Source of the DNA: an uncultured Nitrososphaerota archaeon
Lineage (GTDB): Archaea; Thermoproteota; Nitrososphaeria; Conexivisphaerales; DTJL01
Assembly (NCBI GenBank): GCA_963842885.1
Contig: CAWJIE010000005.1
Location: 96,001 to 160,000 of the forward strand
Length of the DNA stretch: 64,000 nucleotides
Reading direction: 5' to 3'
This document shows positions 31,887 through 34,799 of the stretch, piece after piece (the first letter of the stretch is position 1; every line of letters begins with the position of its first letter). The notes under the pieces were generated by a model. That model was not told where the DNA came from. It ran no database searches and saw nothing but the letters and a program-made list of their open reading frames with translations. The translations under genes and the position numbers were made by a program.

Positions 31887-32285
31887 TTGAGCTCCACCGT
31901 CATACACATCAAGCTCAAGCGAGGCGGATGGGAGGTCGAGCTGGACGTCCCCGAAGACCGCGTGTCGGAGGTCATAGCGAAGGTCCTAGCCGGGCTGAGC
32001 GCGAAAGGCCCCGGCGAAGGCGGCCTCTTCGCCCAGGAGAAGCCCGATCGGGGAGTGACCTGCAAGACGTTGCTGGAGAAGCTCTGGGGCGAATCGTGGT
32101 TCGGGACGCTGCGGAGCCTTTCGGAGGTGGACGAGGAGCTGGCAAGGATAGGGTACCATTACGACAAGACGGCCATCTCTCACAGCCTCACCGACCTAGT
32201 CAGGGAAGGCACCTTGAGCAGGGACGGGACTCCCCGCAGCTACCGCTACGTGCAGAAGAAGCCTCCGGAGAACTCCCTAGCCTAG
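31887..32285 (+). CDS. Small protein: N-terminal beta-hairpin/helix domain plus C-terminal wHTH
   Basis: IHIKLKRGGWEVELDVPEDRV..; WFGTLRSLSEVDEEL..ISHSLTDLVREGTLSR..YRY. Confidence 0.75.
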   Translation: MSSTVIHIKLKRGGWEVELDVPEDRVSEVIAKVLAGLSAKGPGEGGLFAQEKPDRGVTCKTLLEKLWGESWFGTLRSLSEVDEELARIGYHYDKTAISHSLTDLVREGTLSRDGTPRSYRYVQKKPPENSLA

Positions 32286-32774
32286 CTTCCCGAGGGACTT
32301 CGCCAGCCAGTTGACGCCGGTCGTAGTGATGTAGTAAAAGACGCCGTTGTCGGAGGCAAGCCGGTCGGCGTGGCCGGCCTTCGTCATCTCGCTCAACCTC
32401 GAGCTTATGCTCTTCGGGTTGAGCCCCGTAAGGCGCTCAAGGTCCTGAAGGGTGGCCTTGTCCGAACTGAGCTTGGCCGCCTCCAAGCCAATCTTCAGCG
32501 ACACCAGCTGGAGGGCGATCAGCATCTTGTCGCTGAGCTTGGCGTCTGTGATGACGCGGGGGCCTTCAGGCGTCATGCGCACATAGTCCTGGAAGATGTT
32601 CGTGAGTTCAGAGAGGGAGTAGTTCAGCACGAGGGTCTTCGCCAGCTCGAGTGTGGGTATCTGCTTTGCCATCAGGTTGTTGAAGCTGACAGCGACCTCC
32701 TCCGGCGCGCCAATCAGGTCGGCTTCGAAGCCGTCGAAGTTGACGTGAACGCGGACCTCCTTTTTCTCAGACAA
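32277..32774 (-). CDS. Small protein: N-terminal beta-hairpin/helix domain plus C-terminal wHTH
   Basis: VRVHVNFDGFEADLIGAPEEV..; TLQDLERLTGLNPKSISSRLSEMTKAG..YYITTTGVNW. Confidence 0.75.
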   Translation of the reverse strand: MSEKKEVRVHVNFDGFEADLIGAPEEVAVSFNNLMAKQIPTLELAKTLVLNYSLSELTNIFQDYVRMTPEGPRVITDAKLSDKMLIALQLVSLKIGLEAAKLSSDKATLQDLERLTGLNPKSISSRLSEMTKAGHADRLASDNGVFYYITTTGVNWLAKSLGKLG

Positions 32775-32829
32775 ATCTCAAGACCTCATTGTTTCTAGAT
32801 CGCGACGTCTTGCGATGTAGTGCCCTCAC

Positions 32830-32990
32830 TCGGCGTTAAAAGACTTGCGGGTTCTGGGAAGTTATCGGTTGACTCTTCCCTTCGAGACATCGACTCTGAG
32901 GATTACAGGCATCGTCTGGTTCCCCTTCATCGCTTCAACTGCCTCGCCTTTGGAATGGGCGAACCTCACCCACCCTTTGTGCGAGATGTT
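32830..32990 (-). ncRNA. Predicted omegaRNA (reRNA) scaffold plus guide
   Basis: Stems GGGTGGGTGA/TCGCCCATTC, CGAGGCA/TGTCTCG and GGGAAG/CTTCCC overlap the tnpB 3' end; the guide would be the flank CGCAAGTCTTTTAACGCCGA. Confidence 0.6.
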
Positions 32991-34115
32991 CATGACGGCG
33001 ACCAAGTCCCGGTCGAACCACTTCCCGCACTTCGGACACCAGAGCTGTCTATCATGCTGGACGTCCTCTCTTGCTGCCCCTTGGAGTCTCTCCCCGCATC
33101 GGTAACAGTTCGACGACGTCCCTCTGGTCTCGGCTTCAGTCAGACGTATCACCGGGATGCCGGCCCACGCAGCCTTGTACTCGATCTGCCTCTTGATCTC
33201 GGCGTAGGGCCAGCTGTTCATCATCCCCCTGTAGCTCCTCCCCTGCCCGTTCCCTTTCTGGTAAAGCCTCCTGATATCTCGGATGTCTTCGAAGGCGATT
33301 GCTTGCTTATCCTTCACTGCGTCAGCTACGACCATTTTGGAGACTCTGTGGAGGATGTTCTGGATGCGGCCGCGTTTCCTCCTTCCGTACTTCGACGCTA
33401 TCCTCTTCCCAACCCGGACATCGTTCCTCTTGAAGGACCTGACCGCGCTCTTCGTAATCTCTGCTATGTCCACGGCCTTCGCCATGCCATAGTAGGTCAC
33501 CTTCCTATCGCCGCCCACCGTCAGGTTGCGAAGGTTCCTGTCTACCCCGACAGCGCTGGCCAGGCCCTTCAACTCCTCCACCTCTTTCGAATAGGAGACT
33601 GACAGCGATGTCTCCGTCAGCGTGAAGGAGTTCGCCTTCAGCGTCGTGTCGGACAGGACGTGCAATGTGTGCCTGTTCAGCGGTATCTCCTCATGCTTGC
33701 GATCTCCAGTTGGTATGCTAAGGACGCCATTGGTGACCTTGAAGCCATAGCAGGAGGTCAGCATCGGCCTACTCAGGTATGGAGACTTCGTCTGATTTCC
33801 CCTCCTAATCGATTTCTTCCTCGATGCCAGGATGCCGGCGGCCTTTGAAATGGCGCACAGCTTGTAGTAAGAGGGGACGCGGAACCTTGAAAGGCTTTGA
33901 TATGAAAGGAGGCTCAGGCGTCGGAGGGTCGAAGCGTCGCCGGACAGCCCTATGCGGATGCACTCATTCGTCATCTCCTTGAACGACCGCATGAAGATCT
34001 AGGACTTCCGATGAGGGAGAATATGACTGCCGCACCGCCTTCCTGGCCAGCAATTCAGAAATGCAGTACGGAATCACTATTAAGGGCCTGCATCAGCCGA
34101 CAACTTCCCAAAGCC
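32850..34115 (-). mobile_element. TnpB-only element with 23-bp TIRs and an 8-bp target-site duplication
   Basis: TIRs 32850-32872 (GGTTCTGGGAAGTTATCGGTTGA) and 34093-34115 (reverse complement GGCTTTGGGAAGTTGTCGGCTGA), 19/23 identical; flanks GACTTGCG (32842-32849) and GACTAGCG (34116-34123). Confidence 0.8.
32862..33992 (-). CDS. tnpB: RNA-guided endonuclease TnpB
   Basis: RuvC-I VGVDRN, RuvC-II IAFEDI, zinc finger CYRC..CPKC, RuvC-III DRDLVAVMNI; the true start is probably ~34054 (MLARKAVRQSY...), separated by small indels. Confidence 0.92.
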   Translation of the reverse strand: MRSFKEMTNECIRIGLSGDASTLRRLSLLSYQSLSRFRVPSYYKLCAISKAAGILASRKKSIRRGNQTKSPYLSRPMLTSCYGFKVTNGVLSIPTGDRKHEEIPLNRHTLHVLSDTTLKANSFTLTETSLSVSYSKEVEELKGLASAVGVDRNLRNLTVGGDRKVTYYGMAKAVDIAEITKSAVRSFKRNDVRVGKRIASKYGRRKRGRIQNILHRVSKMVVADAVKDKQAIAFEDIRDIRRLYQKGNGQGRSYRGMMNSWPYAEIKRQIEYKAAWAGIPVIRLTEAETRGTSSNCYRCGERLQGAAREDVQHDRQLWCPKCGKWFDRDLVAVMNISHKGWVRFAHSKGEAVEAMKGNQTMPVILRVDVSKGRVNR

Positions 34116-34175
34116 GACTAGCGTAACTCAGCGAAGAGGTCGCACGACCGTGGAAAGCGTACGCCCTTCTGTGCG

Positions 34176-34718
34176 TCACGGGCCGGCGACGGAAGCGTCG
34201 AAGACGGATGGAGTCGAACCAGGTCTCTCCTGGGCGGCCTGTTGGTATTCGGCGCCCGACTGTAGCAGGCTCGTGGAGGAGGTGTACAGGAAGTCGCCGT
34301 CAGGGCCCTTGAACCTCCTGAGCTTCCCCTCCTGTGCCAGCCGGAGCAGCGCCACTGCCACGGACTGCCTCGGGTAAACGAGGCCGAAGGACTCGAGGGC
34401 GCCCTTGACCTCTAGGAGGCGCCTGGGGGTCCTCCCCCATGAGGAGCCGAAGAGCTTCGTCATGATGCTGGGGAGCGATTCCCCCTTCTCCACCCTGAGC
34501 TCGGGGAGGTCCTGAAAGGGCGCCTGCTGGGCCTGCACGTTCGCCGGAGGCTGAGCTAGCGTCACGGGCGGAGGAATCGACGAAGGCTTCTCAGACGCCA
34601 TCCCTTCGACAATGGCAGGGACGAGCTCGATGAGGTCCTCCAAGGAGTCCTTCGGACCCTCGATTTCAACTTCGTTTGCACCGACCTTGACCCTGACCCT
34701 TACGTTATCAGAAGACAT
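34176..34718 (-). CDS. Small protein: N-terminal beta-hairpin/helix domain, Pro/Gln linker, C-terminal wHTH
   Basis: VRVRVKVGANEVEIEGPKDSL..; WGRTPRRLLEVKGALE..SVAVALLRLAQEGKLRRFK..FLY. Confidence 0.75.
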   Translation of the reverse strand: MSSDNVRVRVKVGANEVEIEGPKDSLEDLIELVPAIVEGMASEKPSSIPPPVTLAQPPANVQAQQAPFQDLPELRVEKGESLPSIMTKLFGSSWGRTPRRLLEVKGALESFGLVYPRQSVAVALLRLAQEGKLRRFKGPDGDFLYTSSTSLLQSGAEYQQAAQERPGSTPSVFDASVAGP

Positions 34719-34799
34719 CGTAAACAAGGTTGGAGAATGCCGATATAACGGTTTCCTGGGAAGGCTACGAAAGGAGAACGCTGGTCCTCAAGTATTCGT

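Follow-up and report, generated by a model that had tools for sequence, protein, structure and literature searches.

How does a tnpB gene come to lie between terminal inverted repeats, with a short direct repeat on either side? TnpB is normally tied to scarless transposons of the Y1 or serine type. How it might serve a DDE transposon, which leaves a duplication behind, is named as an open point in the excerpted text of a 2026 review (PMC13565253). The question is raised here by positions 32842–34123 of a 64,000-nt stretch of contig CAWJIE010000005.1 (assembly GCA_963842885.1), which we call the window and which comes from an uncultured Nitrososphaerota archaeon of the Conexivisphaerales. The original prediction, made from the sequence of the window, held that the tnpB gene at this locus belongs to a non-autonomous element mobilised in trans by a DDE transposase, and this proposal is now supported by further copies, matching ends and an empty site. 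Very probably, we are dealing with a non-autonomous tnpB transposon that is moved by an IS6-like DDE transposase acting in trans and whose empty sites are recognised under the guidance of an omegaRNA.

The element and its borders

The interval 32850–34115 is a 1266-bp non-autonomous transposon with tnpB as its only gene and with terminal inverted repeats of the IS6 type (GG tip, CTG core). The two arms of the repeat are 23 nt long and match at 19/23 positions (83% complementary), which makes them the longest among the 32 inverted pairs detected in 32600–34400. Both are abutted from the outside by an 8-bp direct repeat, the copies of which agree at 7/8 positions. The only credible open reading frame (ORF) between the arms is tnpB, and because it is encoded on the minus strand, the low-coordinate end is the right end of the element and the high-coordinate end is its left end. 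The inverted repeat, the direct repeat and the solitary tnpB had all been described in the original prediction, and we recovered each of them in the same place. The original prediction also likened the ends to the IS257 repeat, which it gave as starting with GGTTCTG. The parts of the element and its immediate borders are as follows.

32842–32849, no strand: copy of the target-site duplication on the right-end side, GACTTGCG, the same sequence as the only copy at the empty site of genome G012
32850–32872, minus strand: right-end terminal inverted repeat, GGTTCTGGGAAGTTATCGGTTGA on the plus strand, overlapping the tnpB stop codon and forming the 3' end of the predicted omegaRNA scaffold
32862–33992, minus strand: tnpB, 376 aa, intact, with RuvC D151/E235/D329 and a zinc finger (from the ORF and profile matches)
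34093–34115, minus strand: left-end terminal inverted repeat, reverse complement GGCTTTGGGAAGTTGTCGGCTGA, with 2 changes in the GGTTCTG tip
34116–34123, no strand: copy of the target-site duplication on the left-end side, GACTAGCG, with one change, adjoining the left end

The window copy is old: it is 83–84% identical to its nearest sisters, its left tip and one copy of the duplication are mutated, and its ORF is still intact. The encoded protein matches the Pfam family Cas12f1-like_TNB (PF07282; 7e-16, 58.6 bits against a cut-off of 26.3) and TIGR01766 (47.8 bits, over the cut-off of 32), and with 97.2 bits it falls marginally below the cut-off of 100 for the NCBIfam family guided_TnpB (NF040570). 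Its matches in the PDB are ISDra2 TnpB (E 8e-6) and Cas12f chains. The RuvC residues D151, E235 and D329 are invariant across seven aligned copies, as are the zinc-finger residues C299, C319 and C322; the fourth cysteine, 296, occurs in the window copy but is not conserved in all seven. The intact D/E/D motif and zinc finger that had been read from the window are thereby borne out. Just inside the left-end repeat, at 34077–34084, lies the octamer CTATTAAG (CTTAATAG on the tnpB strand), which is invariant in four aligned copies and could be a TATA-like promoter element of tnpB.

Copies, duplications and an empty site

The source genome (G000; 2.03 Mb in 11 contigs, 87% complete) carries four further copies with DNA identities of 84, 83, 69 and 66%, and two short fragments. 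When all five copies are aligned together with their flanks, the homology on the right-end side ends precisely at GGTTCTG. Two copies are bordered by perfect 8-bp direct repeats that differ in sequence, TAGCTCGG in L003 and TAGATAGG in L005. L005 also has the same variant core at both ends, GGTGCGTCTT in place of GGGAAGTTAT; its ends thus vary in concert, as they should if a single protein binds to both. In L002 there is no recognisable duplication, and the left tip is degraded.

An unoccupied site is present in the genome G012, which belongs to the same genus. A 3.8-kb query spanning the locus aligns to it in two blocks, 94% and 89% identical, that abut the borders of the element and lie 34 nt apart. 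The alignment, ...GTTAAAAGACTTGCG|CAACAGCGGG..., holds one copy of the 8-mer and no element, and the junction reads ...AAAAGACTTGCG|CAAC.... This is the empty allele with a single 8-mer that the original prediction had anticipated in related genomes. The element is also absent from G011, a second genome of the genus, where the spacer is more diverged.

How general are these duplications? Profile-guided scans yielded 133 relatives from species-representative genomes and, from metagenome contigs, at least 544; 80 from each source were kept. The relatives fall in Nitrososphaerota, where they come from Conexivisphaerales, Nitrososphaera, Nitrosotalea, Nitrosopumilus and soil metagenome-assembled genomes labelled Bathyarchaeota. 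The flanks were sufficient for scanning in 166 of 169 tnpB loci. An inverted repeat of at least 16/22 together with GGTTCTG-like tips (at most 2 mismatches) at both ends was present in 63 of the 166, and 59 elements were left after duplicates with identical flanks had been dropped. The 8 bp on the two sides match at 8/8 positions in 19 of these 59 elements, at 7/8 in 7, at 6/8 in 2 and at 5/8 or fewer in 31. Random pairing of left and right flanks (33 elements, genome-only set) gave no match of 7/8 or better and 0.4% at 6/8. Copies with the same ends and different 8-bp duplications, which the original prediction had suggested looking for, thus exist both in the source genome and among the relatives.

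The two ends of the element are not equally preserved. The right-end tip motif occurs in 154/159 loci (43 in a wrong-orientation control) and the left-end tip motif in 83/158 (control 37), that is, left ends decay or vary more than right ends.

Several further loci illustrate the fate of individual copies. L021 (G000:C5:330416–331540), a sister copy 81–82% identical, is decaying: its reading frame contains one TAG, its left tip is degraded and it lacks a duplication. L016 (G012:C89) and L004/L023 (G000:C5:322658–323830) have a common right-end flank, tgattaacctttc / gattaatctttc, which places this insertion before the split of the two genomes and implies vertical inheritance. Two isolated fragments, L006 (G000:C1:38593–38657) and L007 (G000:C3:326605–326643), match only the omegaRNA-like region (window 32879–32943); L006 consists of a right end alone, of the L005 subtype and with its repeat complete.

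An IS6-like transposase with matching ends

What could be the source of the transposase? A search of the source genome with the terminal repeat leads to a 2920-bp element (C5:414111–417030; L008 1612–4531) with 64-bp terminal inverted repeats that are 92% identical. Its ends are GGTTCTGGTCGGTTGTCGGTTGA / GGCTCTGGTCGATTGTCGGTTGA, to be compared with GGTTCTGGGAAGTTATCGGTTGA / GGCTTTGGGAAGTTGTCGGCTGA in the window. The element encodes an intact 420-aa protein (G000:C5:414996–416255) with a SWIM finger, a zinc-binding motif and a DDE_Tnp_IS240 domain (PF13610, 59.3 bits, over the cut-off of 27). The best NCBIfam family of this protein is IS6 (NF033587), with 105.7 bits over the full profile length, followed by IS1 with 45.9 bits. 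A 75%-identical paralogue of the transposase and remnants are also present in the genome. Transposases of this type occur in 5/5 tnpB-bearing genomes tested, one of which has remnants only, and in 89 of the 251 genomes of the class (87 of 249 without two unpublished genomes).

We examined 36 transposase loci, leaving out two loci from unpublished genomes. GGTTCTG ends are combined with perfect 8-bp duplications in 15 of the 36, in elements of 1970–3294 bp. GGTTCTG(T/G)... stands at both ends of the tnpB elements and of these autonomous elements alike, and by their sequence the ends of the two kinds match within lineages. The autonomous L224, from the genus of the window, has the tip GGTTCTGGGAAGTCTTCGGTTG, compared with GGTTCTGGGAAGTCATCGGTTG in the tnpB copy L003, and in G036 the first 18 nt are common to the autonomous L198 and the tnpB elements L063 and L073. 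A DDE transposase with ends like those in the window, which the original prediction had left to be sought, is thus found in the same genome, in the same genus and in other carrier genomes, with IS6 as its best family.

No tnpB occurs in any of the 36 transposase loci, and the only trace of a transposase among 168 tnpB loci is one 73-aa fragment. Since the two genes never share an element in the loci examined, mobilisation must be in trans. The comparative evidence shows a DDE-type insertion with 8-bp duplication by an IS6-like transposase supplied in this way, and we infer that the resident transposase acts on the ends of the tnpB element.

The 2920-bp element has three further ORFs (118, 164 and 213 aa) that match nothing in Pfam or NCBIfam, and a TFB-like gene directly outside it has four more DNA matches (77–80% identical) elsewhere in the genome. 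L009 (G000:C2:16105–16174) and L010 (G000:C3:171283–171351) are mini-elements of 69–70 nt, each with two facing GGTTCTG-type repeats around a spacer of about 23 nt; no clear duplication is seen, and they look like miniature inverted-repeat transposable element (MITE) derivatives of the IS6-like family. Two other paired repeats of 69–70 nt, C1:5260–5328 and C3:382305–382373, were rejected as mobile elements, as they have the same left flank and seem to belong to a duplicated gene. Seven autonomous elements from different genomes (L230, L232, L233, L234, L240, L248 and L249) have similar duplications, TGTTTTAG, TGTTTCGA, TGTTTTTA or the reverse complement CTAAAACA. Their left flank ends in AACC in L234, L248 and L249, and the right flank starts with GGTT in L234 and L249. 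This similarity may reflect a preferred target or insertion into a shared repeat.

A covarying RNA structure that runs into the right-end repeat

An alignment of the last 220 nt up to the right-end tip in the 59 elements reveals a conserved secondary structure over the 3' end of tnpB. RNAalifold predicts 11 pairs, every one of which shows compensatory changes. A four-helix structure of 18 pairs is 93.3% paired, compared with 31–48% when the partners are slid by 1–3 columns, and changes occur on both sides in 17 of the 18 pairs. Its covariation score is 0.598, against at most 0.189 for the slid versions, and none of 500 shuffles reaches 0.598; the structure is somewhat favoured in these comparisons because it was written from the alignment used to score it. 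Listing covarying column pairs by brute force gave too much noise to be of use, and an Rfam scan of 32500–34400 gave no relevant family, its single match being due to chance.

The structure does not stop at the inner border of the repeat. In the right-end repeat, nucleotides −13 to −7 form a further stem with a 7-mer that follows a conserved CGAA, reaching at least 6/7 pairs in 39 of 48 distinct sequences. When repeats differing at three or more positions were swapped in, the same level was reached in 255 of 974 comparisons. The covarying RNA structure over the tnpB 3' end, running into the right-end repeat, is probably the omegaRNA of this TnpB. The right-end repeat would then be both a site for the transposase and the last stem of the RNA scaffold, which would explain why right tips are far better conserved than left ones. 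In the window, the predicted RNA and the motif discussed below are placed as follows.

32850–32975, minus strand: predicted omegaRNA scaffold (covariation over 59 relatives)
32883–32975, minus strand: predicted helices 32953–32959/32969–32975, 32883–32888/32941–32946, 32898–32900/32922–32924 and 32906–32907/32917–32918 (covariation)
32874–32880 with 32856–32862, minus strand: predicted terminal stem, its second arm inside the repeat (pairing test)
32830–32849, minus strand: predicted omegaRNA guide, made up of the 8-bp duplication and the adjoining flank, from 32849 downwards; length assumed
34124–34125, minus strand: TAM-like dinucleotide that reads TA on the tnpB strand and abuts the left-end duplication on its 5' side; TG in the G012 empty site

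The guide is placed by the geometry of known TnpB elements, and the predicted sequence agrees with the G012 empty site for its first 15 nt.

A motif one duplication-length from the left end

If the guide starts at the right-end border, a target-adjacent motif (TAM) should be visible on the other side of the element. On the tnpB strand, T[A/G] stands at −10/−9 from the left-end tip, directly 5' of the 8-mer, in 27 of the 28 elements with duplications of at least 6/8. At other offsets it occurs in 0–10 of the 28, and at the mirror position after the right-end copy in 5. Fifteen autonomous IS6-like elements with perfect duplications have it at 2 of their 30 flanks (counted from listed rows). Being one-sided and nearly absent from the autonomous relatives, the motif looks like a TAM rather than a preference of the transposase, and its position fits that of a motif read by TnpB with such a guide.

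The order at an empty site is T[A/G], 8-mer and right flank. Once the site is occupied, the left 8-mer runs straight into the repeat, and the full match at the right copy has ...AACC in front of it in place of T[A/G].

Mechanism and alternative explanations

What cycle could connect these parts? An IS6-like DDE transposase supplied in trans inserted the element and in doing so made the 8-bp duplication. The structured RNA would be made and would carry the flank as its guide: by analogy with the TnpBs of IS605 and IS607 elements, this guide would consist of the duplicated 8-mer and the right flank. TnpB with its omegaRNA would recognise the unoccupied site only, in which T[A/G], the 8-mer and the right flank follow one another. 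We infer that TnpB cuts such empty sites; homologous repair of the cut alleles would restore or spread the element.

Could TnpB also be the agent that imposes T[A/G] on the insertion sites? We raise this tentatively, as a possibility that falls somewhat short of an even chance, and in two versions. TnpB might act as a filter, such that only insertions that have landed 3' of a TAM are driven into empty alleles and reach detectable frequency. Alternatively, TAM-bound TnpB might steer the IS6-like transpososome to integrate exactly one duplication-length downstream. If T[A/G] is indeed imposed by TnpB, natural populations would provide evidence that the persistence of an insertion is decided by an RNA-guided nuclease rather than by the DDE transposase. 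How a guide starting with the duplicated 8-mer solves the homing problem that duplications pose would become apparent as well.

A number of observations weigh against the proposal of a trans-mobilised, RNA-guided element. Of the scannable relatives, 103/166 failed our criteria for the ends, and T[A/G] is kept in only 16 of the 31 elements with degraded duplications. The repeat of the resident 2920-bp element agrees with that of the window at only 19/23 positions, the resident element has no target duplication, and the 105.7 bits of its transposase remain below the NCBIfam IS6 equivalog cut-off of 125. Moreover, the partner elements, at 2–3.3 kb and with extra ORFs, are unlike the classical IS6 elements of about 800 bp. 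Metagenome contigs (4 DNA runs, 2 studies) hold only the occupied allele, although contigs cannot show absence. Both junctions of the occupied allele are covered in X1 and X2, with no joint that skips 32850–34123, which is not evidence on mobility. Among the sequencing runs listed for the stretch, none is an RNA run. Finally, transposition in the IS6 family is classically replicative, according to the excerpted text of PMC7986276. Replicative transposition leaves no empty donor site, so that the benefit of a homing nuclease becomes less obvious; instead of repairing the donor, the nuclease may be of use when DNA has been exchanged and empty alleles become available for homing.

The alternative that survives best, though we regard it as unlikely, is that the transposase, or a variant of it serving the tnpB elements, prefers targets with T[A/G], and that TnpB is a passive or decaying passenger. 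Weak target preferences are common among DDE transposases. Several copies, that of the window among them, are old and have partly degraded, and one copy has an in-frame TAG. Against this stand the one-sidedness of the motif and its rarity beside autonomous elements with the same ends, neither of which would be expected from a preference of the transposase. A passenger is likewise difficult to reconcile with the invariant RuvC triad, with the covariation of the omegaRNA-like structure and with right tips that are conserved far better than left ones.

Most solo tnpB genes are of the IS200/IS605 (IS1341-group) type, and the window might hold an ordinary element of this kind, moved by a Y1 TnpA, with inverted and direct repeats arising by coincidence. 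The source genome does have one Y1 transposase (C5:213342–213695). We nevertheless consider this explanation highly improbable, because the Y1 gene adjoins a different tnpB, 25% identical to that of the window, and because 8-bp duplications of at least 7/8 are found in 26/59 relatives and in none of the permuted pairs. The empty site shows that the 8-mer was duplicated, and the symmetrical ends of the element match those of a DDE element. Its ends also lack IS605-type hairpins: folded as single-stranded DNA, 80 nt from each end on both strands, they are not more structured than shuffles (z 0.76, −0.71, 1.12 and −0.55). Hairpins of this type, which the original prediction had named as evidence against itself, therefore gave no signal. 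The Y1 gene and its neighbour (G000:C5:212299–213695) form a canonical IS605-like pair of tnpA (142.5 bits, PF01797) and tnpB, so that both architectures are present in one genome.

Least probable of all is an IS607-type element moved by a serine recombinase, with the inverted ends as the half-sites to which a recombinase dimer binds: according to the excerpted text of PMC13565253, IS607 elements end in GG, and the genome has one resolvase-family gene (C5:361178–361660), yet serine recombination makes no 8-bp duplication while duplications of varied sequence are frequent here, no recombinase adjoins any copy (the flanks were not scanned for one in all relatives), the same ends bound DDE transposase genes, and the sole resolvase gene is far away.

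The trans-mobilised tnpB transposon with an IS6-like partner remains the reading we prefer. The family offers a testable case of how TnpB serves a duplication-leaving transposon, as it combines an IS6-like partner type, matched ends, an empty site and a predicted, covarying omegaRNA that ends in the inverted repeat of the transposon, with a candidate 2-nt TAM exactly one duplication-length outside the left end. Its compact archaeal TnpBs (about 370 aa), with a very short candidate TAM, might also be of interest in the mining of nucleases for editing tools.

Other features of the locus

The genes that flank the insertion, at 31887–32285 (plus strand), 32277–32774 (minus strand) and 34176–34727 (minus strand), have no Pfam match; two of them were put down as wHTH genes in the original prediction. 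The 132-aa and 183-aa products of insertion-flanking genes have, by eye, a similar C-terminal stretch.

Comparison with known systems

The elements of the IS200/IS605 family (IS1341 group) are defined by the lack of terminal inverted repeats and target-site duplications and by subterminal imperfect hairpins; those of IS607 have a serine recombinase as partner and neither inverted repeats nor a duplication. Papers on haloarchaeal IS1341 elements likewise describe tnpB elements without inverted repeats or duplications. The window element resembles the IS1341 group (ISDra2-type TnpB with omegaRNA; PDB 8exa and relatives) in its homologous TnpB, in a structured RNA at the tnpB 3' end that reaches the right end and in a short motif 5' of the left end. 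It differs from IS200/IS605 elements in its inverted repeats, its 8-bp duplication and the absence of subterminal hairpins. Unlike in ISDra2-type elements, the duplicated 8-mer stands between the motif and the left end, and the guide must therefore begin with the duplication.

A TnpB-family nuclease within a DDE-type transposon has a eukaryotic counterpart in the Fanzors, which reside in DDE-type transposons with terminal inverted repeats (Bao and Jurka 2013, PMC3627910). As far as the excerpted text of that paper describes them, Fanzor carriers share with the window element the combination of such a nuclease with inverted repeats and duplications. The window element differs in being prokaryotic (Nitrososphaerota archaea), small and non-autonomous, with no other cargo.

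For the IS6 family, the excerpted text of Varani et al. (2021, PMC7986276) names as hallmarks a target duplication of 8 bp and short inverted repeats that have GG at their tips and a cTGT core. As in IS26, IS257 and the archaeal clades, there are an 8-bp duplication, GG tips and a cTGT core, and the partner transposase has an IS240-type DDE domain. Classical IS6 elements are about 800 bp long with one ORF, and only one member with a passenger gene is listed in the same text. The partner elements depart from this pattern in their length of 2–3.3 kb and in transposases to which SWIM and zinc-binding parts are added at the N-terminus and whose scores stay under the NCBIfam equivalog cut-off, and the window element in having no transposase at all.

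The closest precedent is the work of Altae-Tran et al. (2023, PNAS; PMC10691335), the excerpted text of which describes six DDE-associated branches of TnpB (DDE-1 to DDE-6), all with inverted terminal repeats. It also reports a "TA motif 8 bp upstream" and TnpBs that occur solo between the same ends, for which mobilisation in trans is proposed. The window element is like these branches, which we compare by description only, in that TnpB lies within inverted terminal repeats with its 3' end near the end of the transposon. It is unlike them in that the transposase is never in the element (0/36; one fragment in 168). As the rule of that study, so far as excerpted, requires a DDE gene within 1 kb, the clade of the window would not have been labelled DDE-associated. 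The term DDE-5 appears, within the literature searched, only in the same paper (PMC10691335). A protein-level search of a plasmid collection returned only distant TnpBs of at most 31% identity, which provides no link to the remark on plasmid-borne DDE-5.

The excerpted 2026 review (PMC13565253) names ISL2, IS630 and IS1031 as DDE partners, not IS6. In the literature text that we searched, IS6 is not named as a partner of TnpB, and no title or abstract describes a matching architecture. Since PMC10691335, as excerpted, already describes TnpBs with inverted ends, both DDE-linked and solo, the architecture is a known one rather than a new class. What is new here is the IS6-like partner, the empty site, the quantified duplications, the repeat in the scaffold stem and the control that ties the flank motif to tnpB elements only.

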